Of a stretch of DNA of 20,000 bases, positions 3-17,345 are shown in pieces. The stretch is from an uncultured virus (IMG/VR IMGVR_UViG_3300009502_000040). Taxonomy: Duplodnaviria > Heunggongvirae > Uroviricota > Caudoviricetes. The stretch lies in the IMG/VR virus record IMGVR_UViG_3300009502_000040; one strand, 5' to 3'. Every line of letters begins with the position of its first letter. Position 1 is the first letter of the stretch. Position numbers and translations under genes: made by a program. Under the pieces are notes generated by a model, which saw only the letters and a program-made list of their open reading frames with translations, was not told the origin of the DNA and searched no databases.

Positions 3-275
3 CTATATAAAATGGAAAAGGTAGCTGGATTCAATGCTGGTGACCCACCTTCAAATTTACTGAAATTGAGGGATGATGATAAAAATCAATACACCATTTA
101 TTACAATAAAGAAATATCACCTGATACAAAAATTGGTGATAAAATAGTGATAAAGGCAAAAATTAAAAGCCATTATGAAACTCTTGGGCTTAAATATACC
201 AGACTCTATTATCCAAAAAATTTTGTAAATAAATCGCTTAATAAAAGAAATGCAATAAATAGATTCGATTTGTAG
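3..275 (+). CDS. Hypothetical protein with OB-fold-like beta-rich domain and C-terminal RFDL tag; possibly 5'-truncated
   Basis: Frame is open from position 3 (CTA TAT AAA ATG at 12). The pattern LKLRDDDKNQYTIY...IGDKIVIKAKIKSH...GLKYTRL resembles an OB-type barrel. Ends ...NAINRFDL-TAG. Confidence 0.7.
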   Translation, partial: LYKMEKVAGFNAGDPPSNLLKLRDDDKNQYTIYYNKEISPDTKIGDKIVIKAKIKSHYETLGLKYTRLYYPKNFVNKSLNKRNAINRFDL

Positions 276-301
276 TATAATTTAAATGAAATAGTATAAT
301 T

Positions 302-457
302 ATGGGTAGACCAAAAATTTCAAGTAAGAAAGTTGCAATTTCTTTAACTATCAACACCGAATTGGATCAGTTGCTGGATAAGATTGTTGAGGAAAAGAAG
401 CTATCAAAATCACAATATATTGAGGCTTTGATAAAAAAAGATATTCATAAACATTAG
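302..457 (+). CDS. Ribbon-helix-helix (CopG/Arc/MetJ-like) DNA-binding protein, 51 aa
   Basis: Not in the ORF track. Translated by hand: MGRPKISSKKVAISLTINTELDQLLDKIVEEKKLSKSQYIEALIKKDIHKH. It has an alternating beta strand (VAISLTI), a helix, then an S-K-S turn and a second helix (QYIEALI), as in RHH proteins. Confidence 0.75.
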   Translation: MGRPKISSKKVAISLTINTELDQLLDKIVEEKKLSKSQYIEALIKKDIHKH

Positions 458-469
458 TAAAATAAGTTA

Positions 470-1195
470 TTACTGGATTAGGTTACTATAATAATGAACG
501 CCCTTGATCTTAAAATCGAAAATAAATTCATCTGGTAAAGATGAGGACATTATTCTTACTTCATTGTTTTTAATTATACATTTCATTTTCACATTTATTT
601 CATTCCCCCAAAAATCAAAATTAAATGCTGCATCTTGTACAAATTCATTTTCCCAAATAATTGATGACTCTTCTTTTCTTGCCAGTAATGTTAAATAGCG
701 TGTTCCATATTGAAACAATTTCTTTTTTCTGTGAATTTCAAATGTATCACCGACATTCAAAGATTTTATATCAGCTATTCGATCTTCGGTGATCATATAC
801 CCTTGATATTCTAAATGCTTATATGATAATATATTCCTCTTGGGGTGATCTGTATGTATAATCTTGTAACAAAGATAATCTTTATTCTTCGCCCAGTGCT
901 GCTCTTGATTTATCGTACTAATAAATCGCACCACTTCTGATAGCGTATCTTTATTATTAATATATATTTTTTCAATATTAACGGAATTGCTTTGATGTTC
1001 TATAATAGTCCACAACCTGATAATTTTAGAATGGTTATAGGTAATGAAATATTTGTCACAGAACAAGATATTATATTTCACATCCAAGATAAATTCTGGA
1101 AACATCTTTCTCAATTCGCTCAATTTAACTTTATTATAATACTCCCAGACTTGACCCGTACTTAATTTATCAGGATTTATGACGAAAAGGTTCAT
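470..1195 (-). CDS. Hypothetical protein (~241 aa)
   Basis: Long ORF. The ATG at 1195 (MNLFVINP...) is preferred over the track's TTG at 1237. No recognisable motif. Confidence 0.7.
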   Translation of the reverse strand: MNLFVINPDKLSTGQVWEYYNKVKLSELRKMFPEFILDVKYNILFCDKYFITYNHSKIIRLWTIIEHQSNSVNIEKIYINNKDTLSEVVRFISTINQEQHWAKNKDYLCYKIIHTDHPKRNILSYKHLEYQGYMITEDRIADIKSLNVGDTFEIHRKKKLFQYGTRYLTLLARKEESSIIWENEFVQDAAFNFDFWGNEINVKMKCIIKNNEVRIMSSSLPDEFIFDFKIKGVHYYSNLIQ

Positions 1196-1265
1196 TATAA
1201 TAATGGAATTCTTAAAGAAAAAGATAAAATTAGGCAACAGGAGATTACCAATTTTTTAAAATGTA

Positions 1266-1273
1266 TATTTATA
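1266..1273 (-). promoter_or_regulatory. Possible T4-late-type promoter box TATAAATA
   Basis: Exact TATAAATA on the minus strand between uvsW and the 470-1195 gene. The AT-rich background makes a chance match possible. Confidence 0.3.
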
Positions 1274-1285
1274 AGAATAAAAGAC

Positions 1286-2842
1286 TCATAAGGCAATTTT
1301 TCTTTCATCAAAATCGAATTTCTGTTTCTTATAGATTTCATCTCTTCGGGATTCATAATGAGATATTAATATTGTCTTTATGCCTGGATAAAAAACATCG
1401 ACTAAATCAAATACAACGAGCTTGGCTTTTTCGGAATGTATACGCATTCCACGTCCCACCGACTGCATCACAACACGGAAACTTTTATAACTATCGCAGA
1501 ATACAATATTTGTGATAGCACGAATAGATACACCAGTACTCAATGTTCCATATGAGGCAACAAGTATTTTTGGGTTTCCACTTGTATCTTCCATCATTTT
1601 TTTTATATACTCTCTTTTCTCATTCTTAATGCTCCCATCAATAAAATAAATATCTTTACCAACGCAATTATCTCTCAAAAAATCATATAGGTCGGTGCCA
1701 TATTCAATTGTATGAAATAATAAGAGAGAATTTTGCGTGAATTTATCTACTAACACTTTAATAAACTTTTTTCTTTTTGCAGAATTGTGGATATATTCAC
1801 GTTCCAAATGGAACGCTTTGGCCCCGTCAAATTTTCTTATTTTTGCAACTCCATTAGCAAATTCTCTATTGTTATGTTGCAACATTATTGCTTTTATTTT
1901 GATGTTAGTTATTAGTCCTTTATCCATCAAACTACGGGCACTAATATTGACTAAAATTGGGCCCATCAAAGATTCTATGGTGAGAATTTCAGACGTAGTT
2001 GTGTCAGGAAAAGTTCCGCTCATCCCAAATCGCATTTTTGCTGTCCCAAACGTGCGGCTTAAAATTGATATTAAAGATTGTGCTTTTGCAAGATGGCTTT
2101 CGTCACAACAAACAACATCAAACTTAGAAAAAAAATCACGCTGTTTTTTTTCCAAACTTTGATAAGTTCCAATGAAAATATTTGCTTCTTGTTCACCATG
2201 GTATTTTCGTGGATTATCCGACATTATTTCTTCAATTTTTATTTCCATAGGATTTTTATTTTCATTTTTAAATCCATAATTATAATCCATTATATCATTA
2301 TAAAATTGAGTTACAAGATTTATATTTGGAACAATCAATAGAAATTTTGCCTGAGGATTAATAAATTTCAAATAATAAAAAAGCAATGAACCATATATTA
2401 ATGACTTACCCCCTGCCGTAGCAACTTGCAAAAGACCGTAATGATATTTTAAAATTTGATAAATACCATCAATCTGATGATCGTGCGGGGTAAATGGACT
2501 TAAACCGTCTTGTGTTTTATGATCTTTGAAAAAATCTTTAACAAAAGCATCAATTGTTTCTCTTGTTATACTTAGATCAATAGGAAACTGCTCTTGGTTT
2601 TGAATAATAAATGGATATCCATATTGCCTACAACACTTGTAGACTTCGTTCCATAAGCCAAAATCCATAAAACCATCTTTGAAATAGTCTATATCACCAT
2701 TCCATAGACCTAATTTAAATCTTGGACTAAAACGGTAATTTTTTACTTTTCTTGTTAAGAACAATTTAAGCTGGTTTAGTTCAGCCTTTGTGCTTTCAAC
2801 TAATATTATTTTAGAATTATCTGCATTAAGTTTTAATTTCAT
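1286..2842 (-). CDS. uvsW: UvsW-like superfamily 2 DNA helicase
   Basis: N-terminal YRFSPRFKLGLWNGDI segment typical of UvsW; Q-motif PHDHQ; Walker A ATAGGKS; LIVP; Walker B DESH; motif III MSGT; STGVSI; motif VI QSVGRGMR. The 518 aa length fits the T4 UvsW family. Confidence 0.9.
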   Translation of the reverse strand: MKLKLNADNSKIILVESTKAELNQLKLFLTRKVKNYRFSPRFKLGLWNGDIDYFKDGFMDFGLWNEVYKCCRQYGYPFIIQNQEQFPIDLSITRETIDAFVKDFFKDHKTQDGLSPFTPHDHQIDGIYQILKYHYGLLQVATAGGKSLIYGSLLFYYLKFINPQAKFLLIVPNINLVTQFYNDIMDYNYGFKNENKNPMEIKIEEIMSDNPRKYHGEQEANIFIGTYQSLEKKQRDFFSKFDVVCCDESHLAKAQSLISILSRTFGTAKMRFGMSGTFPDTTTSEILTIESLMGPILVNISARSLMDKGLITNIKIKAIMLQHNNREFANGVAKIRKFDGAKAFHLEREYIHNSAKRKKFIKVLVDKFTQNSLLLFHTIEYGTDLYDFLRDNCVGKDIYFIDGSIKNEKREYIKKMMEDTSGNPKILVASYGTLSTGVSIRAITNIVFCDSYKSFRVVMQSVGRGMRIHSEKAKLVVFDLVDVFYPGIKTILISHYESRRDEIYKKQKFDFDERKIAL

Positions 2843-3146
2843 TAATTTGCCTTAATTTTCTTTTTCGTTGATTGCCTAATCTATTTTTATAATAAATATA
2901 TTCAAAGCCGAATCTCTTATATAGTCCTAAAATTCCATTTTGTTCTTCACCACATTTACTACAATATTTATGCTTGATAAGCCCGTCCCAGTCATCATTA
3001 AACGTTAATAATAGAATATGCTTATGTGAAAATGGCGAAGATGGGAATCCATTTATTTCATCTAACATCCAATTCAATGTGATTTGCTCAATAAACCGCC
3101 ATCTATGATATACACATTTATGCCACATCTTATTTATATCCACCAA
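2826..3146 (-). CDS. Hypothetical protein with CxxC (possible Zn-binding)
   Basis: 106-aa ORF overlapping both neighbours; contains HKCVYHRW and YCSKCG. An alternative start is the ATG at 3125. Confidence 0.6.
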   Translation of the reverse strand: MVDINKMWHKCVYHRWRFIEQITLNWMLDEINGFPSSPFSHKHILLLTFNDDWDGLIKHKYCSKCGEEQNGILGLYKRFGFEYIYYKNRLGNQRKRKLRQINEIKT

Positions 3147-4406: not shown

Positions 4407-7400
4407 TTATGCTGAAGCATTCCCAAATGGAATACTTGGTTGTGTAACAACTACAAAGTTTGTTGCAAAACTTTTCGTGTTTACTATCTGATCTGGATTA
4501 GTCAAAACGTAAAATTCTCTATCCCAAGAAGAATTAAATATAAATCTTGAAGAATATTGATATCCATATTCGTCAACCCTTGGATATATTGACATATCCT
4601 GATCAGTATTTTTCAATTTCAAAGGAACAATCTTCGGGTTAACCTTCGAAAATATCATTTCTTCAATAACCCCAAATCCTTGAAGTGAAGTATCAAATTT
4701 ATAATTACTACCCCAGCCATTAATAGTGGTTTGCGTCTTACCACTGTTCACGCTATTAAATATATATGAGCACCCAAATAAAGGAATATCCTTAAAAATT
4801 GGCTCGTATGAACCATTATATCTGAACACTACATTATTAGAAGTTATCTTATTGGAAGCATAAATAGTATTAATATTTGAAACCTTTTGATTTGGATATA
4901 TCGCCCTTGCTAATGGTTCTGTAATATTAGATTTTTTCTTAGTTTGGTCATCGTAATATGTCTTATATTTATCATAAATATTTGTTACTGGACCCTTAAT
5001 TGGTACAGTAATATAAGATGATCGTTTAGTTTCAAGTGAAATAGGGTCTACTATAGAAAGCATGTAAGGTGGAATATTCTTTGTCCACCCACTCAATGTT
5101 GACATTGAATTATTTGGATTGTAGACATTAATATTTCCAGTCGATCCAGAATTTCCATCGGCATCAATATAATAAAACGTAATACCAGAATCAAATTCAG
5201 TAATATTATTTAAATCCCCAAAAGCTGTAGTAAAATTAGCTGCGGTAAATTTACTTGGGTCAAACTGCGGTGATGTTGCACTTAATGACTCACCATATAC
5301 AGTTTTAGCGGTGTATAATCCAGTTTTTTCATTAAATATTGGCACATTGTTTAAATTAACAAATCCACTTTTAATCGGAATTGTCGCATTAACAATGATT
5401 AATAAATTTTTAAATTTTTCATTTAAAAAAACATGAATTGCATCAACGGTATTATCAATTACAGTATTACCAGATAGCCCATTTTCAACAATTCCTCCAC
5501 CATCAATTAAATATACATCATTTAATATTATAGCGAATTTGTAACCGTTAAATGTTTTACTATTATCATAAATATAGTCAGTAATAGCACCAGTATCATT
5601 CCTTACTATATCAGATAAATAACCAGCGTTAAAATTTAATCCTTTGAAGATTGTTGTAGATTGAGAATATTGATCACCACAATTAAAAACGGAATATTTT
5701 GATGTGGGCTTTAAATAATCAACATAATCTAATCTGTAATACATTTTATTCTTAAAGAAGTATTCAAAATAGTCTACATTTGAATTTAAATATAATCCCA
5801 AATTAAACTTACTGCTTAATTTGTTCATTAAATCAGTTTCTATATTTGTTGATTGATTAAAATACCTAACTGTAACCCCAGTTGAGCCTATTGTTGTGTT
5901 ACCAGAAAAGAAATTTCCTATTCTATAGAAGTAATCCAAATTCTTTTCAGCTTCATCTGGAAGATTTAAAATAGTGTTAGCTGTTCTATTGAAAATATCA
6001 CCAACTTTAATTGAGTTGTTCATTTTATATGGGTAGTCACATTGGCACAATGACCCAACCGCACCCCATTTAACATATGACTGATTTTTACGCCATATAT
6101 CAGACAATTCACTATTATTATTTAAAACTTCAAATAGCTCATCATCCCCAATATATTCAGAGGCGGCATTCATAATTTGATATTGCCCGTCTTCCCCTCT
6201 TGCATGAATCATAAATTCTCTACCAATCGATTCATTCATATAATCAGTTGCATATATTTTGTGTTCATTTGTAAGATGATATGTATCTTTTTCATAGTCA
6301 AAATCAGCAAAATGGGTATTAACAATATCCATATCAAAATCTTTAACATCTGTTAATTTTAATCTATACACTGGGTATGTAATTGGGGTTTGCTTGTAAG
6401 TTGAAACATTTTTAACAATCCTTGTTCCACTATCTTTTCCACCTTTCCAATACTCTAAATATGTTGGAAATGAATTTATACCATAATCACTTTGAATAAA
6501 ATAATCGGTACCTCTTTTCTTTAATATGTGATATATACCATCAATATTAATTAAATATAAATCAGCATACATTGAATGTGTAACAGCATCGTTAGGATTT
6601 GAACTATAATAATCATCTATAACATCATACGGATCAATTTGAAATTTTGATGTCATACCAGATACAAAATTTGTATATCCAGACGGATTGTTTATGGCAC
6701 GGCAACGATAATTGAATCCGTGCTCATAGTTAATGATACAGCTATTATCATAAATTTTACTAAAATCAATATCTTTCATATCACGATCACTTATTATCTT
6801 ATAAAGATATTTATCGTCTTGCTGTACTTTTACGACCTCATAAAATTTACCTTCATACTGAATCCAATATGTTATATTATCTTTGAACCCATCTACAAAT
6901 GGAGATTCGATCATTTCTGTTGTTCCAGAACAAAAAATATTATTTATCAATCCTATATCTGGCTTAAGTGATGGGGTCATATAAGACGTTAAATTAGTAA
7001 CAAATTCTAACTTGTCAATGTAAAATCCATAATATCTATTCATCGAATAGTTCCTAACAAGCTCTGGTGTTGATGGAACATCATTAAATAAAAATTTCAT
7101 ATTTAATATGTTTGGATAAATCATATTATTTTCTTTATATCCGTCAACGATCATTTTTTCAAGTCTAAAATGCGGCTGTTCATAAAATAGTGCGTCCTGT
7201 AAATATTTTTCCTTAACAACATAAGAACCGCTGGTATAATCAATCCCAGACCATCTTGAAAAATTAAATCTTTTAAAATCCAATTCGAATGAATGAAGTG
7301 GGAATCTGGTATTATTAGTGAAATTTTTAGATAGAAAATATCCAAGATCGGATTGATATCTCATATCAAAAAAATTAACGCATTTCCACTTATCAACAAT

Positions 7401-7880
7401 TTGATCATTAAAATTATCTTTATTGAGCTCCGATATTACAAATTCATTGTTAATCATTTCATATGGAGTTGGCTCATCCACTCGTAGAACAATAAACCCC
7501 TCAGGAAGAGTATCCTTCCTAATAAACAACGGTGCAAAATATTCATAATCTTCGTTAAACCACTTATCTTCAACAGCTTTTGCACCACTCCAATACATAT
7601 CATCAAACTGTTTATCATATGAACTTTGAACGATTTTATTGTCATTATCATATTTTACATCAAATGCTAAATCTGATGGTAATCCTTTATAGAATCTAAC
7701 CAATTGATCTTCATATAAAGAATTTTTGCTTATTTGAAAATGCTTATACTTTTCATCACTAAGCTGCTTATTGGTGTCAAATGTTTCTAAGTATAATTTA
7801 TAATCAGAACTAACAACTAATTTCAAATTAGTAGTTAATCTTGGGTTTGTTTTGAGTAGCTGAAAACTTCTATTTATCAT
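4407..7880 (-). CDS. Large probable virion structural protein, 1157 aa
   Basis: Uninterrupted ORF coupled by an ATGA overlap to the upstream 1078-aa gene. N/D/Y/T-rich with no catalytic motifs; 9 S-G-x-T motifs. The ORF is certain, the function is inferred. Confidence 0.65.
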   Translation of the reverse strand: MINRSFQLLKTNPRLTTNLKLVVSSDYKLYLETFDTNKQLSDEKYKHFQISKNSLYEDQLVRFYKGLPSDLAFDVKYDNDNKIVQSSYDKQFDDMYWSGAKAVEDKWFNEDYEYFAPLFIRKDTLPEGFIVLRVDEPTPYEMINNEFVISELNKDNFNDQIVDKWKCVNFFDMRYQSDLGYFLSKNFTNNTRFPLHSFELDFKRFNFSRWSGIDYTSGSYVVKEKYLQDALFYEQPHFRLEKMIVDGYKENNMIYPNILNMKFLFNDVPSTPELVRNYSMNRYYGFYIDKLEFVTNLTSYMTPSLKPDIGLINNIFCSGTTEMIESPFVDGFKDNITYWIQYEGKFYEVVKVQQDDKYLYKIISDRDMKDIDFSKIYDNSCIINYEHGFNYRCRAINNPSGYTNFVSGMTSKFQIDPYDVIDDYYSSNPNDAVTHSMYADLYLINIDGIYHILKKRGTDYFIQSDYGINSFPTYLEYWKGGKDSGTRIVKNVSTYKQTPITYPVYRLKLTDVKDFDMDIVNTHFADFDYEKDTYHLTNEHKIYATDYMNESIGREFMIHARGEDGQYQIMNAASEYIGDDELFEVLNNNSELSDIWRKNQSYVKWGAVGSLCQCDYPYKMNNSIKVGDIFNRTANTILNLPDEAEKNLDYFYRIGNFFSGNTTIGSTGVTVRYFNQSTNIETDLMNKLSSKFNLGLYLNSNVDYFEYFFKNKMYYRLDYVDYLKPTSKYSVFNCGDQYSQSTTIFKGLNFNAGYLSDIVRNDTGAITDYIYDNSKTFNGYKFAIILNDVYLIDGGGIVENGLSGNTVIDNTVDAIHVFLNEKFKNLLIIVNATIPIKSGFVNLNNVPIFNEKTGLYTAKTVYGESLSATSPQFDPSKFTAANFTTAFGDLNNITEFDSGITFYYIDADGNSGSTGNINVYNPNNSMSTLSGWTKNIPPYMLSIVDPISLETKRSSYITVPIKGPVTNIYDKYKTYYDDQTKKKSNITEPLARAIYPNQKVSNINTIYASNKITSNNVVFRYNGSYEPIFKDIPLFGCSYIFNSVNSGKTQTTINGWGSNYKFDTSLQGFGVIEEMIFSKVNPKIVPLKLKNTDQDMSIYPRVDEYGYQYSSRFIFNSSWDREFYVLTNPDQIVNTKSFATNFVVVTQPSIPFGNASA

Positions 7881-10800
7881 GCACCTAACGCCCCTCCTTG
7901 AGCAATTGTTCCACCACCAGTACGAACTATGTATGTGTAATTTCTATAAATTTTAAATACTAATTCGAATTCAAACGGACGTGATGAGTTTTCAATTTCC
8001 GCAAAAATTTTCAATCGCCTTGTAACAAATGATGAGGTGGTTGTATTTTGTGGAATATAAACGGCTGGATACGCTGATGTGCTTCCAGTTGACATTTTAA
8101 AATATATGATAATTGGTAGAGTTATTATACCATTCGCATCAATATATTTAACACCCCCCTTATCAGAATACACAAAATTGCTTATATCTACAATCTTTGG
8201 GTGAACAGAAGTCAAGAATGCTGTTGGGCCTCCAATCCCCCAGTTTTCTGTTGTGGATGATATTCCAGTCCACGGTAACGACATAATGCTTATTGGGTCT
8301 GCATAACTTAGATTGGCATCAGGTGAAGTTCTTCCAGAAATACCAACATTATAATTATTTGATGATAATACTGAATTTTGCTCATTAATATAATTAGCCT
8401 GATTTGATGTAAACCCAGACCAGTATATTTGCTGTGTGCCAGTAGAATCATCAATCCAAATGAATTGATTGTCTGTCTGAGCATATAGAATATCATTTTC
8501 ATCAACATATGTGGCTAATGATCCTTTTGCTACAACAGGATTATAAAACCTATTATCTGTTGTGCTCGTTGGAACAAATTTTCTATAAGAAAGTAGACCC
8601 AACTGGCTGCTTTTTGCAACATTTTGAAATTGAATATAATAATCCTCAATTCCTTGTACACTATTAATGTAATTACGTGTACCGCCACTTGATTGTGCAC
8701 TTTCTTCACACCTGACTGTTATTGTTACTGATGCTCCATTGGCAATAGTAGTAGGAACAGTGTCTTTAAATAATGTGACTGTAAGTTCACCTTTTGAACG
8801 AAGAATTTGCTCTTCTAATGAGGCAATTCTTGTATTTAAATTTATCAAATATTGATATAATGTAAGCATATTTCCCGTATCATCCTTAAACGATGTCCCA
8901 AGATTTATATCCATATGGGCAATATATTGATCATTATTGTAAAATGACTGTTGCAAGTGATTTGATAAACCTTTAGCATTCAATTTGTTTTCAAGTGCAT
9001 TTGCAATTGTATCATCTTGAGCTTCTTGTAATATTATAGAATTTTCATCACCAATTTGTGATAAATCCGTTGGAAATCCAATTGTTAACACATTACTCCA
9101 GTCAGATTCAATCGGAGCATCGGGCCAACCAACTTCAGATATTGATTTAATTCTAATTTCAACAGTTTCACCATTCTGAATAGCAATATCCAATTGATTA
9201 ATATTAGGGGTATCTGCGTTAGACACATCTTCAATTACCCACGTCCAAACATCCAAAACACTATTATATAATCGTTTTCTGGCATCGGATAAAAATTGAT
9301 TCCAGTTTGAAAAATATCCAGTTGTATTTACAATTTGGGTTGTAACACTTGGATTTGTAAATGCTCTTGTCTGATCAGAAATATCACCAGTTGTTGTGGT
9401 TGTGTTATACGTGGTTTGATTCATTGTTAAATTAAACCCTTCGGTAGGTGGCTCTGACCCACCAGTCTTACTATAGCGATACTGCACTTTAAATTGTACA
9501 ACTTCTTGCTTTGTTTGATATCCTTCATACCCAGTCAAAACTGGCTCTGGAAAACTCCAAAACCCACGAATATGATATTTTGGGGCTATGGTAGGGGTTG
9601 ATCCTTCATTATTAATTCTCGACACTAATGATGATAATAATTTTGTTTGACTATCCTGTTCTGAAATTAGTGTGTTTAATTGGGTTTTAGCCGCAGATTT
9701 TTCAGAATTTGACTTAAACTGAGCCATGTTAACATTTCTGGTTTGCTGCGTTACAGCATCACCAAGTTGTTCAATTCTTGATTTAACTGCTGACTTTTGA
9801 GCATGTAATTCTCTGAGCTGTTGAGAATTTTTTGTGTCAGTTAAATGCGTATTAATCTGAACAACTTTAAAGTTCGTTTGATTTAAAACTGGGGCATTTG
9901 GAATTTTTCCAAATTTACTTGGAATATTCTTAACAATCATATCCTTTAAAATTGCGCCATAATCAAAAACAGTCTCAGTATAGTACTTTGTCATTGATAT
10001 TTTATTATTCGTATCCAAAACCAAATCGTTTGTATAATAGCAAGTTCCAAAAGAGAATGTAGATGAAACAATATTGCTATCTGTATTTATAGGTTTAACA
10101 AAAATAATATTATATTCATCAAACCCAATAGATACCTTTATTGTTTTATCAGTAATTGGTGGACTATATATTTTTAACCCCTGTGCCATAATCGGGACTG
10201 GTTCTAAACCTTCTGTTCTTTCTAAAATAATACGGAAATTGCTTTTAGCAGTACTGACTTCTTTTATTTTCCATTTGGTTGACGAGTTCTTTTTATTAAT
10301 AATAAGCTCATCACCTATTGATAATGTTCTTGTGTTTCCAGAATAGTCATAATAAGTAAGAGTTCCAAGAGTATACCACATTTTGTTGTTGATAGTATCA
10401 TTATCCACCCCAATAACATCGAATACGCCATAATACTGAAGCTCACTATAATCCAATGAAAACACTTGTTCATCATATGGCTCATTGGCTCTAAGAATAC
10501 CATAATTATTTGGGTTATTATACCAAGTTGTGAAGTCATCGATAAATATACTATTCTTTGTCAGAAATTTATCTTCAAAATCTTTTTTAGATGCTTGTGC
10601 ATCACTTGTATATACTCCATTATCATCTTTTTGAAATTTGATAATATATCTTCGGGATAATATTTTTGTTACCTTATCTTCAATTTTTCCTGTCAAATCT
10701 ATATTAACAGCCAATAATGGATTGGATAATGATTCAAAAAATGAATTATTGATAGATGTAAATGATTTTACGGTATTTAATGCGTCTATTGGCTCAGGTT

Positions 10801-11113
10801 CACGATTTAAATCATCAACGTAAACTTTTCTCATAGTTGTACCATCACTAACATAAACATTATTATTATTTAAGCCAGCCAACTTTTGGATATTTCGATT
10901 TGCTTGGTCTAATTCACTTTTCAATTGACCAACACTTGGGAAATTGAAAGTTGTAGTGGTACCATCGGGATTCAGCATGTTGACATTTATAACCGATTTG
11001 TCACTTGAGCATACATCATTTAATCGGGATATTATTTCTACCGAATTTTTATTCATTTGAGCCATTTGTTCGGCTACTGCTACAAACGTGTTCTTTTGGT
11101 TTATATTTGCCAT
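7877..11113 (-). CDS. Large probable virion structural protein with coiled coils and an FN3-like domain, 1078 aa
   Basis: Heptad-like segments (LRELHAQKSAVKSRIEQL..., LINLNTRIASLEEQI) and an FN3-like pattern (QFKVQYRY...VEIRIKSISEVGWP...ESDWS). Thr-rich insert QTTYNTTTTTG. Preceded by a TTTTTATATATA motif. Confidence 0.65.
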   Translation of the reverse strand: MANINQKNTFVAVAEQMAQMNKNSVEIISRLNDVCSSDKSVINVNMLNPDGTTTTFNFPSVGQLKSELDQANRNIQKLAGLNNNNVYVSDGTTMRKVYVDDLNREPEPIDALNTVKSFTSINNSFFESLSNPLLAVNIDLTGKIEDKVTKILSRRYIIKFQKDDNGVYTSDAQASKKDFEDKFLTKNSIFIDDFTTWYNNPNNYGILRANEPYDEQVFSLDYSELQYYGVFDVIGVDNDTINNKMWYTLGTLTYYDYSGNTRTLSIGDELIINKKNSSTKWKIKEVSTAKSNFRIILERTEGLEPVPIMAQGLKIYSPPITDKTIKVSIGFDEYNIIFVKPINTDSNIVSSTFSFGTCYYTNDLVLDTNNKISMTKYYTETVFDYGAILKDMIVKNIPSKFGKIPNAPVLNQTNFKVVQINTHLTDTKNSQQLRELHAQKSAVKSRIEQLGDAVTQQTRNVNMAQFKSNSEKSAAKTQLNTLISEQDSQTKLLSSLVSRINNEGSTPTIAPKYHIRGFWSFPEPVLTGYEGYQTKQEVVQFKVQYRYSKTGGSEPPTEGFNLTMNQTTYNTTTTTGDISDQTRAFTNPSVTTQIVNTTGYFSNWNQFLSDARKRLYNSVLDVWTWVIEDVSNADTPNINQLDIAIQNGETVEIRIKSISEVGWPDAPIESDWSNVLTIGFPTDLSQIGDENSIILQEAQDDTIANALENKLNAKGLSNHLQQSFYNNDQYIAHMDINLGTSFKDDTGNMLTLYQYLINLNTRIASLEEQILRSKGELTVTLFKDTVPTTIANGASVTITVRCEESAQSSGGTRNYINSVQGIEDYYIQFQNVAKSSQLGLLSYRKFVPTSTTDNRFYNPVVAKGSLATYVDENDILYAQTDNQFIWIDDSTGTQQIYWSGFTSNQANYINEQNSVLSSNNYNVGISGRTSPDANLSYADPISIMSLPWTGISSTTENWGIGGPTAFLTSVHPKIVDISNFVYSDKGGVKYIDANGIITLPIIIYFKMSTGSTSAYPAVYIPQNTTTSSFVTRRLKIFAEIENSSRPFEFELVFKIYRNYTYIVRTGGGTIAQGGALGA

Positions 11114-11135: not shown

Positions 11136-11151
11136 TTATATATAAAAAAAA
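11136..11151 (-). promoter_or_regulatory. Putative class B (late-like) promoter TTTTTTTTATATATAA
   Basis: ~22 nt upstream of the 11113 start; similar motifs at 14252-14265 and 17931-17943. Confidence 0.45.
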
Positions 11152-11181: not shown

Positions 11182-11569
11182 TTATAAATCGAATTGACGT
11201 GTTCTTGTAAATAAGTTAGATTCCTTGTCAGTTGCAAGTCTCATCACTCTGGATGGTGGTATCCAATCTTCATTTCTGGGTCCAGCGGGAAAGTTTGACC
11301 TTATCACATAATGATAGTTTAAAAAATTTATTATTTTACCAACCTTCTTATCAGTTATCCATTCTTTATCATAGCAACTAAATATCCTTATAAACTACAA
11401 TATCACCAGCCTTATATTTAAGATTGTCTGGTGGGGCAATAATCATAGATTGGCTTAGATTTAATGCCCCCCATGGTAAATTAAGATTACTATTATTTGC
11501 ACTCATAGCATGCAATGATCGTAATGGCTTGACTTTATATTTTTCTTCGAATAGCTTTAAATATTTCAT
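11182..11569 (-). pseudogene. Frameshifted small SH3/KOW-like protein (~128 aa if joined), MKYLKLFEE...RQFDL
   Basis: The 63-aa ORF stops at GAT ATT TAG (TAG at 11380-11378). The +1 frame continues SCYDKEWITDKKVGKIINFLNYHYVIRSNFPAGPRNEDWIPPSRVMRLATDKESNLFTRTRQFDL-TAA (stop 11184-11182). Removing one T joins the two. Confidence 0.75.
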
Positions 11570-12261
11570 TTGACTATTATTACAAATTGAAGTTGTTCTG
11601 ACTCATCATTAACACTACATTCGACTTTAGGCCCCCACTTTTGCTTTTGACTCCAGTCGTGAAGTGCCATAAATGGTCTATTGCTTTGGATATCTTGATC
11701 ACTGTAAATACTTTTATCAAATGTTTTAATGACACGATTATCAACAATTTCTGTCTTTATTGGTTTGTGCTCAGGTATAAAATCTTTAATATCTTCTTTG
11801 ATCTGCCTTAAAATATCGATGTTTCTTAAATTTATTGAATTAATCATTCCACCAATTGAACTAACAGCTTTATATTTAATAATTGATCTGAAATATCTTG
11901 GAGATGCAACAAATTCACCTGTGACATAACTCTTTTGCGAATTACTATCCAAAAATCCATATCTAAACGTTGATTTGTCCTTAACACCAAAAAAGAAAGC
12001 CAATTTATCATCTTTGCGATCCAGCAGTGTTTTATATGTACTTGCTAATGAATGTTTATATTTGAAAACCTCAAGAAGCTCTCTAACATCAGATATTGTT
12101 TCGGTTGAGAAATAATACTGATATTTATAAAGTTTTGTGTAATGGTCATTCAACATGAAATTATACCCATGATTACCTATTACCTGAAGAAGACTAAAAA
12201 ATGAAAATTTTCCAGATAATTCATTAGAACTTTCATTTACAAATCCAACGTATTTTTTCAT
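11566..12261 (-). CDS. Hypothetical protein with CTS-like N-terminus (MKKYVGFVNES), 231 aa
   Basis: ATGA overlaps on both sides; no recognisable domain. Confidence 0.8.
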   Translation of the reverse strand: MKKYVGFVNESSNELSGKFSFFSLLQVIGNHGYNFMLNDHYTKLYKYQYYFSTETISDVRELLEVFKYKHSLASTYKTLLDRKDDKLAFFFGVKDKSTFRYGFLDSNSQKSYVTGEFVASPRYFRSIIKYKAVSSIGGMINSINLRNIDILRQIKEDIKDFIPEHKPIKTEIVDNRVIKTFDKSIYSDQDIQSNRPFMALHDWSQKQKWGPKVECSVNDESEQLQFVIIVK

Positions 12262-12629
12262 TGAAATTTCTCATATGTTTTTAAGTATCTGAATACTTTT
12301 TCTTGCTGTAATTGATTAGGTACATCATTAATAGCGTCTTTATTAAACGCATTAGTTTTAACCCTTGTAGCATCAGTATCCAAAATTGATTTGGCTACAG
12401 TTTCTATATCATCACCTCTTTCACAAGCTTTTTTTATATCAGCAGCAAAATCAGACATTCTTTGATCATCTTTTTCTGGAGAATCCCCCTGTGTAACCAT
12501 TAAATCGTTAAACAATTGTGGGTCAATTCCTTTATATTTAGGGTCTTGCCCGATCAATTCTTTGATTTTATCCTGTACCATATCGAAATATTTTTTAACT
12601 TTTGTATCTACTGTTAATTCCATTACCAT
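12258..12629 (-). CDS. Hypothetical acidic/helical protein, 123 aa, with a CTS-like motif at the C-terminus (YLKTYEKFQ)
   Basis: ORF in a tight operon with an A-rich translation start region. Confidence 0.75.
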   Translation of the reverse strand: MVMELTVDTKVKKYFDMVQDKIKELIGQDPKYKGIDPQLFNDLMVTQGDSPEKDDQRMSDFAADIKKACERGDDIETVAKSILDTDATRVKTNAFNKDAINDVPNQLQQEKVFRYLKTYEKFQ

Positions 12630-12646: not shown

Positions 12647-13087
12647 TTACATATCAAATCTATTTCCTATACTATTCGATTCATATTCCTTTTTAATTTT
12701 ATCCATACTTTTAGTAAACTCATCAATATTAGCACTAAAATTTAATTCTCTAAAAAAATCTCCATGATCACCAGTATTTATTGTACCTATTGTAAATATA
12801 CATATACCATTCAATCCTTTTTCAGACTGTGGGTTAAGATATATATTAAACAACTTAATCCCATAATTATTCTCAAATTCAATTTTAAATCCTATGGTTT
12901 TATTTGGGGCTCTATAAAAATTACAAAAACCTCTTGCTGAATTAAATGGAAAATAGTTCATTTGAATTATTTTTAATTTTTTGATAAAATCTTCAATATA
13001 TTCCATTGTCACATCATTGAATTTAATTTCACATACCAAGGATGTTCTTGTATTTTTCCAGCCTTCATTAAATCTTTCTATTTTCAT
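12647..13087 (-). CDS. Hypothetical protein, 146 aa (MKIERFNE...RFDM)
   Basis: ATGA overlap with the upstream gene; carries both terminal motifs. Confidence 0.8.
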   Translation of the reverse strand: MKIERFNEGWKNTRTSLVCEIKFNDVTMEYIEDFIKKLKIIQMNYFPFNSARGFCNFYRAPNKTIGFKIEFENNYGIKLFNIYLNPQSEKGLNGICIFTIGTINTGDHGDFFRELNFSANIDEFTKSMDKIKKEYESNSIGNRFDM

Positions 13088-13899
13088 AAATCAAATCTTT
13101 TCATTGCCATTTCTTTATTAAACAGTTCAATACTATCAGGTTTCATCAAATCTGAAAATTCATTAAGAACTTTCAATAATTGATAGTGACTTAGCCCACA
13201 ATTTTCCCGTTTCCTACTGAGGTCATTTATTTTGATATTTCTCCATTCAATGTATCCCTTTGGTGTAAGCCCGTCACTTATTGAAAATGAAAATTGCGTA
13301 TCATAATCATGCTCATACATATCAAAATTTATATTGTATGAAATTCGTTTTTCTGTACTTGGCTTACCAAGTATCATCTCTAATGTAATAGTATCTTCTT
13401 CACTAATACTAAATTCTTTATCTTTTTTATTTGATGTACAGAGAACTAATTTTTCGATATCCATCCAATAATTATGGTCATAATCCCGTTTAAATTTTTC
13501 AATATTTCTAATCAAATTTCCAATTTTGTTGGTATATTCCCAACCTCTCAAAAAACTTTTTAATCTTGGATTCCGCTTAAATTGATCAGCTATTTTTTTT
13601 AATGAATATTCATAAATTAAATCTCGTATATCATTTATTGCATCTTTATATTTTATTCTAAGCTCTTCCTCATAATTTCCTTTTGTCTTCCGTTTATCAT
13701 CCAATCTTTTAAGCCTTGTTCGTTCTTTTATTACGGCTGGATCAAAATCTTTATATTTATCTTTAGCATATTCTAACCCCTTATTTTTCATAAGTGATCT
13801 GAACCTATCTGTCATATCTGGATTTTCGGTCTTTACTTTATCCATAAATTCAGTTTCTGATGAATTACCAACTATATGATATTCAAATATTGTATTCAT
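13084..13899 (-). CDS. Hypothetical protein, 271 aa (MNTIFE...RFDL)
   Basis: ATGA overlaps on both sides; charged helical N-terminal half; C-terminal RFDL. Confidence 0.8.
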   Translation of the reverse strand: MNTIFEYHIVGNSSETEFMDKVKTENPDMTDRFRSLMKNKGLEYAKDKYKDFDPAVIKERTRLKRLDDKRKTKGNYEEELRIKYKDAINDIRDLIYEYSLKKIADQFKRNPRLKSFLRGWEYTNKIGNLIRNIEKFKRDYDHNYWMDIEKLVLCTSNKKDKEFSISEEDTITLEMILGKPSTEKRISYNINFDMYEHDYDTQFSFSISDGLTPKGYIEWRNIKINDLSRKRENCGLSHYQLLKVLNEFSDLMKPDSIELFNKEMAMKRFDL

Positions 13900-14243
13900 A
13901 AATCGAACCTCCCGATTGCTTTTTTTCTTTCATACTCTTTAACTTCATCGTCACTTGGGGATTTAAATCTATTAACCCAACCAATACTAACCCAACCATT
14001 ATATAAACTACCCTCATATTTACCAGAAATTATTACACCATCAACAAATATTGATGAATCTCCGTCCTCATCAGTTATTTTACCTATCAAAGTAGAACTA
14101 ATTTCAGTTGGCTCATCATACACCGACCATATCTCCTCTTTATCAGTTATTGTTGCCTTAGTCATAAATATGTGCAACTTGATATAATTACCAATATCAA
14201 AACTTTCATTACATTTTAAATACAATTCAAATAGTGTTATCAT
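13896..14243 (-). CDS. Hypothetical SH3/KOW-like protein, 115 aa (MITLFE...RFDL)
   Basis: FDIGNYIKL...IGKIT...W...SDDE pattern; first gene of the cluster, just downstream of TTTTTAATATATAA. Confidence 0.75.
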   Translation of the reverse strand: MITLFELYLKCNESFDIGNYIKLHIFMTKATITDKEEIWSVYDEPTEISSTLIGKITDEDGDSSIFVDGVIISGKYEGSLYNGWVSIGWVNRFKSPSDDEVKEYERKKAIGRFDL

Positions 14244-14251
14244 ATATTGTA

Positions 14252-14265
14252 TTATATATTAAAAA
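14252..14265 (-). promoter_or_regulatory. Putative class B (late-like) promoter TTTTTAATATATAA
   Basis: 8 nt upstream of the 14243 ATG, in a divergent intergenic region. The 13-mer TTTTTAATATATA is identical at 17931-17943. Confidence 0.5.
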
Positions 14266-14273
14266 TAAAATCG

Positions 14274-14300: not shown

Positions 14301-14347
14301 AAAGAAAAATAAATGAATCGATGCATTTAAGAAAATAATTAATAATA

Positions 14348-15985
14348 ATGATTCAAATAAATGATAAAACTGTATATTTTCCAATTAAATACATACCCAA
14401 AAAATATCAATTAGATGCTCTTGAATTTACCAAAAAATCAATTTTAAATGGTAAAAAGAACATTTTATTAAATTTGCCCACTGGAAGTGGAAAATCATTC
14501 TTTGCAGTCGCCATGCTTGCTAACTGGTATAAGAATTTTATCAATAACGATGCTAAATTTGATATCATCACAAATTCTAAGGTCCTTCAAGATCAGTATT
14601 TAAAAGACTTTCCATTCATCCGAAATCTAAAAGGGATGTCAAATTACTTTTGTGATCCGTATGACACAGACTGCTCTAATGGCAAAGAAATATGTAGGGT
14701 ATTAAAAAATCATGAATGTGGAGAATGCCCATACGATTCAGCCAAATTTAGGTGGATTCACAGTGAAATAGGGCTAACGAATTTTCACATGTTTGACACA
14801 TTATCATTATTTCAAAAAAGCATCATCAACCAAAGAAATTCGAATGTCTTAATTGTTGATGAATCTCAGGAATTTGAATTGATATTTAGTTCTTATCTTG
14901 GCACAGCTTTAAGTGCCAGAACTTTAAAAAAATGCGGATTCAATCAAAGTGATATTGAAAAGATGGATGAAAAAATTAAAAAAATAAAGACTTTAGATAA
15001 ATATGTTGACTATATCGAAAATCATTTAATTGATAGCTTAGAAACAAAAAAAGAAGAATTTGAATTAACACTTGATAAGATCGGGGATTTAAAAAAGAAA
15101 AAAGAAGTTGGGTCTTATATTCAAAGTCTTCAAAGCAAAATACGTTCATATAAGTCATTATTCGTTGCGTATAGAAACGATCCAGATAATATTGTTCTGG
15201 AAATCGATATAAACAAGAAAGAAAAACATTATTCTGGGGTTGAATTGACATCGCAGTTTGTATGGGCCTACAATCAAATACATGAGCAAGTTTGGAAAAA
15301 CTATGATCATATAATTTTCATGTCAGGAACAATTTTAAATAAGGAGATGTTTTGTTATTTAAATGGACTTGATGAAGAAGTTACAACATATTATGAAATA
15401 AATAGCCCATTTTCTTTGAAGAATAGACCGATTTATTATATAAAAGTTGGTAAAATGAGTTATAATAGCAAAGAAGAGACATTCAAAAAACAAGTAGATT
15501 TTGTTGAAAAGATACTTAAGAAATACCAAAGTAAAGGGATTATTCATACTGTTAATTATGAATTGACAAAATTCATACAAGATAATATTTTAAATGAAAG
15601 ATTTATTTTTCATGAAACTGAAAATAGAGATCAGATGCTTGAGAAGCATTTAAAAAGCCCAGAAAATACTGTTCTCGTTAGTCCATCTATGATGAGTGGT
15701 ATAGACTTGAAAGATCATCTGGCAAGATTTCAGATTTTAATGAAAATCCCATTTCCAAGCCTTGCTTCGAAGAAAATAGTTGCCAGAAAGAAATCAAACC
15801 CAGATTTTTATGTATATAAAACTGTGTGTGATTTAATACAAGCTATTGGCAGGGGCGTTAGATCAGAAACCGATTACTGTGATACATTTATATTAGATGC
15901 TAATTTATCCGATCTGCTAAGATATAACTCACGAATGATACCAAAATATATTCGTGACGCTATCAAAGAATTAAAAATTACCTAA
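14348..15985 (+). CDS. DinG/XPD (Rad3)-family SF2 helicase with putative 4Fe-4S cluster
   Basis: Q-motif KYQ; Walker A LPTGSGKS; LQDQY; KGMSNYFC...C...C...CGECPY Cys cluster; Walker B VDESQ; MSGT; GIDL; KIPFP; motif VI QAIGRGVR..D. Confidence 0.88.
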   Translation: MIQINDKTVYFPIKYIPKKYQLDALEFTKKSILNGKKNILLNLPTGSGKSFFAVAMLANWYKNFINNDAKFDIITNSKVLQDQYLKDFPFIRNLKGMSNYFCDPYDTDCSNGKEICRVLKNHECGECPYDSAKFRWIHSEIGLTNFHMFDTLSLFQKSIINQRNSNVLIVDESQEFELIFSSYLGTALSARTLKKCGFNQSDIEKMDEKIKKIKTLDKYVDYIENHLIDSLETKKEEFELTLDKIGDLKKKKEVGSYIQSLQSKIRSYKSLFVAYRNDPDNIVLEIDINKKEKHYSGVELTSQFVWAYNQIHEQVWKNYDHIIFMSGTILNKEMFCYLNGLDEEVTTYYEINSPFSLKNRPIYYIKVGKMSYNSKEETFKKQVDFVEKILKKYQSKGIIHTVNYELTKFIQDNILNERFIFHETENRDQMLEKHLKSPENTVLVSPSMMSGIDLKDHLARFQILMKIPFPSLASKKIVARKKSNPDFYVYKTVCDLIQAIGRGVRSETDYCDTFILDANLSDLLRYNSRMIPKYIRDAIKELKIT

Positions 15986-16013
15986 ATTTTTACTTTTCAA
16001 TTTTTTTTATACG

Positions 16014-16040
16014 AAACTATTTACTACTTTTGTACCGTAA
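16014..16040 (+). promoter_or_regulatory. Putative class A promoter (AAAC-N18-CGTAA)
   Basis: AAAC TATTTACTACTTTTGTAC CGTAA, preceded by CG as at 14272-14277; upstream of the 16099 gene. Confidence 0.4.
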
Positions 16041-16098
16041 AACCAAAATGGCATTATGAAAGAAATAAATAAAATGTTTCATATAAAATCCAATTGTT

Positions 16099-16812
16099 AT
16101 GGAAAACGTAAAGAAGATTATCGAAAAACTAAATGAACTGATCGGCAATGCCAACATCAACTTGGTTCTTTTAAATGATATACACAAAAAGCTGTATCGA
16201 GTCAACAAGGTTGGAGAACGGCCCAACAACAATGATCCAGTCGAGGTTTGTGAAAGTATCAAAGCCCAATTGAGTGAACTGAATAAACCAGATGTTGAAA
16301 TTCTGCCGCCCGTAGAAAAAAAGATCGTTCAGATCAACAAGCGGGTAAGTAACACCATTAAACGTGCTGAGTTGGCTAATCTTACGCCAGAAGAAAAAAC
16401 GAGACGAAAAAAGAAAATTGCTGAAGAATGGCTAAAAAACAACCCGACATATTTTAAAAAATGGCGGGAAGGTAACCCAGAATATACAGCAGAGTGGTTG
16501 AAAAATAATCCAAATTATCACAGGGAGTGGTTGAACAAAGGTGAAAATAACAATGATTATAAAACTCTTAGAAAGGTGTATGATAAAGACTACAACACTA
16601 AGAAAAAACTTGGTATCACTAAAGCACCACGAATTTTTCGAGCAGATACAATTTTGGATGCCATCACGAATGGTTCCAATACCCAACGAGCAATCAGCGG
16701 TAAATTGGGTATTAATTTGCCAGCCGTCAATGTTTATATTAAAAAGTTGATATCAAAAGGCAAAATAACCGCCAATTCGAATGGTGCTGTCATTATATAT
16801 TCATTGGTTTAA
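16099..16812 (+). CDS. Putative DNA-binding protein: W-x3-N-P-x-Y repeats plus C-terminal winged HTH (MarR-like)
   Basis: Repeats EWLKNNPTY / KWREGNPEY / EWLKNNPNY / EWLNKGEN. The C-terminal ILDAITNGSNTQRAISGKLGINLPAVNVYIKKLISKGKI fits a wHTH pattern. Confidence 0.75.
   Translation: MENVKKIIEKLNELIGNANINLVLLNDIHKKLYRVNKVGERPNNNDPVEVCESIKAQLSELNKPDVEILPPVEKKIVQINKRVSNTIKRAELANLTPEEKTRRKKKIAEEWLKNNPTYFKKWREGNPEYTAEWLKNNPNYHREWLNKGENNNDYKTLRKVYDKDYNTKKKLGITKAPRIFRADTILDAITNGSNTQRAISGKLGINLPAVNVYIKKLISKGKITANSNGAVIIYSLV
16426..16545 (+). repeat. Intragenic ~11-aa (33-nt) tandem repeat, about 3.5 copies
   Basis: gaatggctaaaaaacaacccgacatat / aaatggcgggaaggtaacccagaatat / gagtggttgaaaaataatccaaattat / gagtggttgaac. 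Confidence 0.8.
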
Positions 16813-16823
16813 ATTCAATCGAT

Positions 16824-17345
16824 ATGGTCGAAATTCCCCAAGTAAACCCAAATACCATAAGAATGGCAAACCTTAAAAAGATTGCCATTTTTATGGGATA
16901 TCGGTATGATCCACACAACGAGTGGTCAGGAACTTGGTTTCGTAATACTGGAAGTTCTTGGGTTGTTAAAGGCTCCATAGAGCATGAATCTAAAACCACA
17001 TTGAATTATAATGCGGATTGGGGTATTCTGATGGAAGTTTGGGAAAGGATCGCAGCAATGAGGAAGGCATCAACTCAAAAATCTGATTATTCAGAGCACA
17101 ATCTTGTTCCTGAAATGTGTCCAACAATTGATGAAATGACAATTGGACCTGTCGGATGCCTTATCAGGGCACGAATTGGTAAGGAAAAATTTACGGCATT
17201 TAATGTTATTGGTGATAAATTAAGGGCACGTGATGGTATTTTTACCCTTATTCAAGCAACTTATACCACTATATTAGAATTTGTCGATTGGTATAATGAC
17301 GTTTTTCTTCCGATTAAAAACACTGAAAAAAGATTTGATCTATGA
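16824..17345 (+). CDS. Hypothetical protein, 173 aa, with C-terminal RFDL
   Basis: IAIFMG...LNYNADWGILMEVWERI...ATYTTILEFVDWYN looks like a phage hypothetical family; ends KNTEKRFDL-TGA. Confidence 0.8.
   Translation: MVEIPQVNPNTIRMANLKKIAIFMGYRYDPHNEWSGTWFRNTGSSWVVKGSIEHESKTTLNYNADWGILMEVWERIAAMRKASTQKSDYSEHNLVPEMCPTIDEMTIGPVGCLIRARIGKEKFTAFNVIGDKLRARDGIFTLIQATYTTILEFVDWYNDVFLPIKNTEKRFDL

Follow-up and report, generated by a model that had tools for sequence, protein, structure and literature searches.

A two-ended terminal signature on small proteins of a freshwater megaphage and its relatives as a candidate docking or sorting signal

Six tagged genes at the locus

The window analysed here, the whole 20,000-nucleotide (nt) stretch from the uncultured virus record IMGVR_UViG_3300009502_000040, is part of a metagenome contig of 102,870 base pairs (bp). 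It contains six open reading frames (ORFs) on both strands whose products end in the tetrapeptide [R/Q]-F-D-[L/M] directly before the stop codon. A first-pass annotation of the bare sequence had described this ending as a C-terminal tag and proposed it as a sorting or docking signal. All six ends were confirmed, and this report concerns the tag, the genes that bear it, and the equivalent endings of related megaphages.

Four of the six lie on the reverse strand and form an array. Its first gene encodes 115 amino acids (aa) at 13896-14243, starting with MITLFELY and ending with KAIGRFDL-TGA (13896-13910). It is followed by an ORF of 271 aa (13084-13899; start MNTIFEYH, end MAMKRFDL-TGA at 13084-13098), the stop codon of which overlaps the start of the next gene (ATGA), and by an ORF of 146 aa (12647-13087; start MKIERFNE, end SIGNRFDM-TAA at 12647-12661). 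The 146-aa protein had a single homologue, 98% identical, among 5.8 billion proteins. The fourth case (11182-11569) had been regarded as a frameshifted gene, which was confirmed: the N-terminal part (11378-11569) starts with MKYLKLFEE, the C-terminal part (11182-11307) ends with RTRQFDL-TAA (11182-11196), and the two are out of frame. Contigs of three of the four other runs matched the broken gene exactly wherever they cover it, so the frameshift is not an assembly slip of the window. In the fourth run, an 8-nt palindromic insertion behind 11378 restores a common frame to the two parts; further upstream, the gene is broken by a 1-nt deletion at 11467. Both indels were found on one contig at a depth of ~8. 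Should they prove genuine, two populations seem to be losing the gene independently, each in its own way.

The remaining two ORFs lie on the forward strand. The ORF at 12-275 ends with NAINRFDL-TAG (261-275); its earlier length of 87 aa holds as a minimum only, as the frame is open at the 5' end of the window, and its N-terminus probably lies upstream. A phmmer search matched it (E = 5.9e-8) to a 273-aa tagged protein of the related contig G001 introduced below. The other, an ORF of 173 aa (16824-17345), ends with NTEKRFDL-TGA (17331-17345). Its core resembles widespread phage proteins of 104-134 aa without a Pfam family, to which extra sequence has been added (atlas feature score 0.93; structural template modelling score 0.54 by query length and 0.80 by the length of the 111-aa match).

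When the seven pieces of the tagged proteins were compared without their last eight residues, the best pairwise BLASTP E value was 0.24, in agreement with their description as mostly unrelated. Pfam and PHROG searches of the tagged window proteins gave no family, and an atlas look-up of the 271-aa protein gave no usable match. The synonymous codon variation noted earlier was also borne out, and all three stop codons are used. The first residue of the tetrapeptide is encoded by AGA (four times), AGG and CAA (once each), Phe by TTC and TTT (three each), Asp by GAT in all six, and the last residue by TTA (three), TTG, CTA and ATG.

Composition would predict 0.0024 tagged ends among the 21 visible C-termini, and the probability of six or more is 1.3e-19. 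The pattern [RKQ]FD[LMI] occurs 10 times in six-frame translation; in six of the 10 the next codon is a stop that closes a long ORF, and two are internal and in frame within real genes, namely a helicase (14555-14566) and a topoisomerase (18604-18615). The core enzymes and the large virion proteins were free of the tag, as the first-pass annotation had stated.

A two-ended signature in related megaphages

Relatives were collected through a 1078-aa protein encoded next to the array, which is encoded at 17 IMG/VR loci with 40-68% identity. Tails of the form F-[DE]-x were absent from all 17 loci. The syntenic small genes end differently: four genes of locus L011 have the tail KYNL and seven genes of L002 have KFN[IL] or QFNL, and their products start with MKY[IL]KxFE or MITxFKxFE. 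Judged from these sequence comparisons, the RFDL tetrapeptide is the spelling of one lineage and the last part of a longer, two-ended signature.

The genome-wide count of C-termini that had been proposed as a check was run on relatives. The largest census was made on G001, the 330,208-bp contig behind locus L010 (CheckV completeness estimate 46%), using non-overlapping ORFs of at least 50 aa (n = 574) and the tail pattern [KRQ][FY][ND][LIMVF]. The pattern was found at 102 of the 574 C-termini (~18%, about one in five), spelled KFNL in 48, KFNI in 43, KYNI in six and KYNL in four. Inside the G001 proteins it occurs 89 times in 99,020 aa, which by a by-hand estimate is not above composition. In G001 as in the window, the expected enrichment at C-termini without internal enrichment was therefore observed. 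The tagged G001 genes lie in 30 runs, the longest comprising 10 genes.

Pattern scans against a reversed control gave 119 versus 18 matches for G001, 74 versus 12 for G002 and 76 versus 15 for G007. The contig behind L016 (40% identity) gave 6 versus 6 and the complete 735-kilobase (kb) genome LR756501 gave 32 versus 25, which is no enrichment in either, so the signature is confined to a sub-clade. A 43-kb portion of LR756501 showed no recurrent tail of another kind, and 10 kb of additional sequence from the 102,870-bp contig contained no further tags.

The N-terminal part of the signature (hereafter the N-motif) comprises 8-9 residues with a near-invariant Glu as the last. It occurs as type A, M-K-[YH]-[IL]-K-x-[FY]-E, and type B, M-I-T-x-F-K-x-[FY]-E. 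It is present on at least 89 of the 102 tagged ORFs in G001 (70 type A, 13 type B and six behind a miscalled start), and a looser N-terminal pattern was found on just 7 of 472 untagged ORFs. Glu occupies position 8 in 59 of the 70 type-A starts and position 9 in 8 of the 13 type-B starts. The C-terminal part consists of a short Glu-rich amphipathic helix followed by [TAS]-[NK]-[KR]-[FY]-[ND]-[LIM]-COOH; in G001, [TAS] stands at -6, [NK] at -5 and a fixed Phe or Tyr at -3, preceded by a stretch of helical appearance in which Glu occupies -14, -13 and -11, while -12 and -10 are hydrophobic. In the window, three to four of the five assessable N-termini have the N-motif. The earlier description thus captured the C-terminal tetrapeptide and missed the N-motif, the Glu-rich helix, the clade-wide presence on ~18% of genes and the paralogous subfamilies among the bearers.

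Selection on the peptide, and not on a DNA repeat, had been proposed and is well supported. In G001 the tail codons are AAC (51) and AAT (51) for Asn, AAA (99) and AAG (3) for Lys, TTT (72), TTC (20), TAT (5) and TAC (5) for Phe or Tyr, and ATA (47), TTA (44) and CTA (5) for the last residue. The positions that vary are synonymous ones in the frame of the upstream gene, all 102 junction windows are distinct, with a longest shared run of 33 nt, and the changes between lineages are conservative in protein (K/R, F/Y, N/D, L/I/M); selection therefore acts on the peptide.

These observations also bear on an alternative in which the nucleic-acid junction itself (tail codons, overlapping stop and start, next start) serves translational coupling or recombination, with the peptides arising as by-products. 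An ATGA overlap into another tagged gene is present at 50 of the 102 tagged G001 genes. In the window, a 37-nt junction (13064-13100, reverse strand) that encodes KRFDL-stop, the overlapping start and the next N-motif, MKIERFNE, was found unchanged between other neighbours on further contigs of each of the four runs compared, and contig joints and loose ends lie at 13063-13101 in all of them. Syntenic slots hold unrelated cassettes in different phages, while two untagged neighbours, of 231 and 123 aa, are conserved. All three observations would suit a junction element; the exactly synonymous variation, the distinct junctions and the conservative lineage changes speak against it. So do the tagged genes with no family gene behind them, at least 23 in G001 and two in the window. 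As the former have no gene start within 60 nt downstream, the tag is independent of the next gene. A junction element is thus largely refuted as the main cause, and we give it hardly any weight. The recurring junction nevertheless suggests that more such junctions exist elsewhere in the phage, and cassettes are possibly exchanged at them, in which junction homology may help. A Bacteroidetes-type -7 box (TAnnTTTG) over the tail codons was considered separately and rejected, as it fits one or two of the six window cases by eye.

Protein bodies and genomic setting

The bodies between the two ends were compared by BLASTP after trimming 12 residues from each end of the 102 G001 proteins (E <= 1e-3). 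This produced 59 components: one of 23 members, one of 13, one of three, seven pairs and 49 singletons. A Pfam scan of 98 of the 102 proteins identified ankyrin repeats in 11 (scores exceeding the curated threshold), LRR in two and ExoX_C in one. The 23-member subfamily was modelled as a small beta-barrel with a C-terminal helix, and its structural neighbours were solely weak SH3/Tudor/chromo/PsaE-like matches (E >= 0.12). Unrelated binder-type scaffolds of at least three kinds (ankyrin, LRR and SH3-like barrel) carry the signature, as do many orphans. With these bodies, the 59 components and the mutually unrelated window members, the tagged proteins are not one full-length paralogue family, as had been anticipated. 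Profiles of the barrel and ankyrin groups gave only marginal matches to window ORFs (E >= 0.016), driven by the N-motif.

AlphaFold models were made of a barrel and an ankyrin member. In terms of the predicted local distance difference test (pLDDT), the barrel model had a mean of 87.6, with residues 1-10 averaging 48 and the last three 54; the ankyrin model had a mean of 88.7, with residues 1-10 averaging 43 and residues 190-192 below 50. The cores of both exceeded 90. Conserved ends of low predicted confidence, joined to the core by variable linkers, have the usual look of short linear motifs. A predicted complex of the ankyrin and barrel members, intended to probe contact between the tags, scored 0.00 and speaks neither for nor against such contact.

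The same proteins could instead descend from one old, fast-diverging superfamily whose ends form a shared cap or self-association handle (in dimers or head-to-tail chains), with ankyrin or LRR repeats inserted between them. The paralogous subfamilies of 23 and 13 members in tandem, translationally coupled arrays, with the 50 ATGA overlaps already mentioned, agree with such an origin, as does the near-constant pairing of the two ends. The helix that leads into the tail is confidently modelled and packs on the core, which would also suit a cap. Both motifs, on the other hand, are of low confidence, and neither model places them against each other or against the core; an ankyrin solenoid also keeps its two termini far apart, one at each end. 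A strictly terminal tail and a joint respelling by lineage are also unexpected of a purely intramolecular role. We therefore consider the superfamily explanation unlikely, though it deserves more attention than the junction element.

The extent of the class was estimated with a profile of the barrel subfamily, which retrieved 2,672 cluster representatives at E <= 1e-3 and 1,516 at E <= 1e-10 from 1.84 billion in public metagenomes (clusters at 50% identity). Among the 150 best matches, 145 have the tag at the C-terminus (KYNL 90, KFNI 20, KFNL 19, KYNI 15, KYNV 1); of the other five, three have one-residue tail variants and two have short extensions past the tail. Ten barrel clusters that were looked up contained solely unnamed metagenome proteins. 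The subfamily matches neither a Pfam nor a PHROG family, and tblastn of one of its proteins against 50,697 GenBank phage records gave no match. The six window ORFs are members of a very large class of megaphage small proteins that is defined by its terminal signature and not by a fold. Searches of the megaphage and huge-phage literature for ankyrin, paralogs and lineage-specific expansion yielded no description of the tagged family, and the portions of the jumbo-phage review PMC7824862 that matched the terms searched had no passage on it.

The F-D spelling was found in all six window tags and in one tail (...NRFDM) on the head-module contig L097, and in none of the 150 best global matches. The pattern of spellings indicates that a whole lineage has respelled the tail across unrelated proteins. 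Such respelling would be the product of a single co-evolving reader, or of a tail spread by recombination.

Lineage-specific expansion as such has a precedent in Bacillus phage G, for which the relevant part of PMC7824862 reports ~35 zinc-ribbon copies. Tandem arrays of diverged small paralogues in a giant phage genome are common to both cases; in the megaphages, unlike phage G, the sharing is confined to the two chain ends across unrelated folds and involves 102 genes in 330 kb.

A recurring motif was found upstream of the tagged arrays: at a distance of 5-30 nt from the start codon, a T run leads into (A)ATATATA. Searched in G001 as T{5,}A{1,2}TATATA, it gave 32 matches versus five in the reversed control; 26 are intergenic, versus 1.7 in shuffles. 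Gene starts are preceded by 25 of the matches, and 10 of these 25 genes are tagged. The other genes behind the motif include the homologue of the 1078-aa gene, a 1498-aa collagen-like tail-fibre protein and homing endonucleases, and there was no Pfam-named replication gene among the 25. In the window, the promoter-like motif TTTTTAATATATA (14253-14265, reverse strand) lies 9 nt upstream of the first tagged gene and TTTTTTATATATA (11137-11149, reverse strand) lies upstream of the 1078-aa gene; with up to one mismatch, 10 matches were found versus 1.8 expected. Further copies occur at 17931-17943 (reverse strand) and at 17960-17972 (forward strand, one mismatch), the latter 28 nt before the topoisomerase gene. 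The motif resembles the T4 late box. In the relatives, motifs of this class precede tagged arrays, a tail-fibre-like gene and portal genes, the portal gene being preceded in two of seven loci checked (L109, L097). Because the motif is shared with portal, tail-fibre-like and virion-module genes, the tagged arrays are probably transcribed late, from a promoter like the late one of T4.

Head modules of the clade were reached via the capsid protein of LR756501. They encode a portal, a head maturation protease, a major head protein, a head-closure protein and a gp55-like late sigma factor; on L092 the E values were 9.5e-59 for the portal, 7.6e-31 for the protease, 5.5e-24 for the major head protein and 2.5e-5 for the late sigma. 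Searches of the tag-bearing fragments for the head-protease family S77 and the Gp23 major-capsid family gave no match. The gp55-like late sigma (L092:795-1169, L097:2624-2998, L063:1458-1838) ends in ...GLHNI, and in ...GFFNI in a distant relative.

The late sigma brings in the sliding clamp, to which the first-pass annotation had pointed. The cited part of PMC2988020 describes T4 gp43, gp33 and gp55 as binding gp45 through short hydrophobic and acidic C-termini on flexible linkers, which are interchangeable between proteins. By analogy with T4, the late-sigma tail should be the clamp-binding epitope, and it is partly like the family tail. The tail could accordingly be the clamp-binding epitope of the clade as a whole, tethering many small proteins to the clamp on DNA. 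A short C-terminal peptide common to otherwise unrelated proteins, and the resemblance of ...GLHNI and ...GFFNI to [FY]-N-[LI]-COOH, agree with this idea. The C-terminal piece of a relative's DNA polymerase ends in ...NSIFQF, unlike the tag, and the F-D lineage keeps the sigma tail ...GLHNI, so the two tails have not changed together. More than 100 clamp clients in half a genome would also be unprecedented. The clamp parallel has thus proved weak, just the late sigma tail being partly similar, and we regard clamp tethering as very improbable.

The window is AT-rich, with a GC content of 28-35%. Immediately 3' of the tagged array and on the same, reverse strand lie two large genes of 1078 and 1157 aa (4407-11113). 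The 1078-aa protein belongs to phrog_29329 (PHROG search, E = 5e-82) and is matched by 31 GenBank phage records, the best of which are the 630-735-kb huge phages of Al-Shayeb (LR756501 and its kin; 37-41% identity). Further homologues occur in Lak megaphages, Sphingomonas phage PAU (gp264) and Tenacibaculum phage PTm1, and the PTm1 homologue adjoins head-completion and neck genes. Both large genes probably encode virion-module proteins. Embedded within the array on the reverse strand (11566-12629) are the untagged 231-aa and 123-aa genes, for which phmmer matches were found only in L002, L011 and G001 and not in L016 or L001; in the regions examined they are restricted to tag-bearing relatives. 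The 231-aa protein has an N-motif-like start and a conserved end of its own, ...F-[IV]-[IL]-I-V-K, and the C-terminus of the 123-aa protein resembles the N-motif of the family. Searches of the PDB with the 1078-aa, 1157-aa and 231-aa sequences gave no significant match.

The other genes of the window encode a ribbon-helix-helix (Arc/CopG-like) protein (302-457), a UvsW-type helicase (1286-2842, reverse strand), a DinG-like helicase (14348-15985), a winged helix-turn-helix protein (16099-16812) and a fused type II topoisomerase (from 18001). The ribbon-helix-helix protein has five paralogues in G001, which represents a second, smaller expansion. The topoisomerase is fused in the window's contig (1101 aa on L036) and split into two ORFs in G001. 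A megablast comparison of the window with GenBank phages gave no match. Near-identical DNA is present in freshwater and lake runs of several studies, and no RNA run was among the public runs containing it. Since the 1078-aa homologues occur in huge phages and near-identical DNA occurs in freshwater and lake runs, the window phage is a freshwater megaphage of the T4-like 'group 2.2' sort, as that group is described in the relevant section of Iyer et al. (PMC7824862).

G001 (L019-L035) also encodes Hsp70, IF3, a histidyl-tRNA synthetase fragment, NAPRTase and NAD synthase, together with Tad3-, Tad4- and Acb3-like anti-defence proteins and a Cas6-like protein. Several DUF7487 and DUF723/DUF4379 copies are named homing or HNH endonucleases by PHROGs. 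Split or invaded core genes were seen at 23642-25003, 111471-112952, 63800-65371 and 85656-88144: DNA polymerase B occurs as two pieces ~87 kb apart, IMPDH has an intein-splicing match, and RtcB is interrupted by a LAGLIDADG gene.

A candidate signal for docking or head loading

Both ends of the tagged proteins may be short linear docking or sorting signals for one common partner, which, on the sequence patterns described, we hold to be evenly balanced between true and false. One common reader would explain the single lineage-specific spelling on every copy in a genome. Of the explanations weighed, the shared docking or sorting tag first proposed is the best-supported candidate. The flexible and highly conserved ends of the AlphaFold models fit a docking motif.

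The most likely purpose, put forward tentatively and by analogy, would be loading into the prohead in the manner of the T4 capsid targeting sequence (CTS). According to the passages drawn on from PMC8442874 and PMC3012670, the only element common to the diverse internal proteins of T4 is the 10-residue CTS, MKTYQEFIAE, at which a single cut is made in the prohead. The diverse, fast-evolving proteins IPI-III and Alt of T4 thus share just a short N-terminal peptide ending in Glu; the megaphage N-motif likewise opens with M-K, with an aromatic side chain at position 7 and Glu as its last residue, and T4-type head genes (portal, head protease, major head protein) are present in the clade together with a T4-type late sigma. 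According to the part of PMC5694885 used here, every T4-related prohead protease cuts on the C-terminal side of Glu, and virions of SPN3US contained 86 detected proteins, ~33% of the proteome. In such a scheme, the N-motif would act as a loading signal for the prohead and would be cut off after its Glu by a T4-type head protease. The C-terminal tail would provide a second contact, for retention, ejection or docking at a capsid or portal site, and a large repertoire of binders would be packed in the giant capsid and delivered with the DNA. The megaphage signature differs from the CTS in having this second, C-terminal signal, of which we know no counterpart in T4, and in its presence on hundreds of genes per genome, compared with a handful in T4.

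A second rival keeps the idea of docking and changes the partner. The ends could dock on an AAA+ protease or chaperone, either as a degron or in adaptors that deliver host proteins, as do the poxvirus ankyrin/PRANC proteins or the SspB tail. In poxviruses and giant viruses, ankyrin proteins plug many binders into one machine through a C-terminal PRANC/F-box-like element. The megaphage proteins resemble them as repeat-protein binders with a common, here putative, C-terminal docking element. PRANC, unlike the megaphage tag, is a folded Pfam domain of ~40-50 residues, whereas the tag consists of a 15-20-residue helix and a terminal tetrapeptide without a Pfam match and comes with an N-terminal motif. 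The Pfam scan of the 98 tagged proteins contained no PRANC or F-box domain, and the ankyrin model ends in a single helix; to our knowledge, bacterial hosts have no SCF ligase. A binder scaffold with a short flexible terminal peptide would nevertheless suit an adaptor, the N- and C-terminal recognition classes of ClpX have a similar basic-hydrophobic make-up, and relatives encode Hsp70. Hsp70 was rejected as a receptor, being non-discriminating: it occurs in tagged relatives and in the tag-free LR756501. No Clp, Lon, PDZ or S41 protein was present among the 147 larger G001 proteins scanned (the contig represents 46% of the genome), and the motif shared with virion genes points to late expression, a poor fit for early host takeover. 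Docking on a protease or chaperone is accordingly judged improbable.

Several observations weigh against docking and head loading as proposed here. No receptor was found among the candidates considered (Hsp70, Clp, Lon, PDZ and S41). The T4 prohead protease follows a rule of Leu or Ile three residues before the Glu, whereas this residue is mostly K or T in G001, and only 3 of the 102 G001 N-termini are closely like the CTS (MKT[YF]xQ[FY]NE). IPI-III of T4 are highly basic, and the tagged megaphage proteins are mostly acidic, with a median isoelectric point of 5.3 versus 7.0 in untagged proteins of similar size (26% are basic). The 173-aa window protein has a tail and no N-motif. Tagged genes lie inside the head modules on eight of nine loci inspected, which is about what the 18% background predicts, and the label 'late' depends on a shared sequence motif. 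Many bearers, such as the members of the 23- and 13-protein subfamilies, are true paralogues, so some of what is shared is due to common descent. The low pLDDT of the ends may also reflect a limit of the modelling, which could overlook a real contact there because columns without variation provide no covariation signal.

The most far-reaching form of the loading proposal has a two-part code, a CTS-like propeptide and a [KR]-[FY]-[ND]-[LIM] tail, loading well over a hundred small binders (ankyrin, LRR, SH3-like and orphan folds) into the giant capsid for co-injection, with the tail of each lineage co-evolving with a single receptor on the capsid or portal; this combination is doubtful, though conceivable. 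If true, the code would give phages an equivalent of the effector arsenals that type IV systems secrete. In the portion of PMC3096851 cited here, Icm/Dot substrates are characterised by a Glu-rich helical block whose first residue lies 11-18 positions from the C-terminus, and by hydrophobic residues close to the chain end. The megaphage tails are similar in being shared by hundreds of diverse proteins and in the Glu residues dominating -14, -13 and -11 in G001. Many Legionella Icm/Dot effectors have ankyrin or LRR domains. The Icm/Dot signal differs in being loose and not an invariant terminal tetrapeptide, so the resemblance is one of layout only, and no type IV system was seen in the megaphages, none having been looked for.

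Even on the soberest reading, the tagged genes are still among the largest gene-family expansions seen in phage. About one fifth of the genes in these megaphages share what looks like one address label, and megaphage genes are for the most part of unassigned function. If the label is a loading or docking signal, a large block of these 'dark' genes would be explained as one functional class, whose members would be predictable from sequence alone. There would then be a single receptor, which could be fished with a peptide, and the signature might serve as a portable tag that brings foreign proteins to the receptor's site, as the T4 CTS does for capsids. The KFNL, KYNL and RFDL spellings of the different lineages would provide a natural experiment on the co-evolution of tag and receptor.

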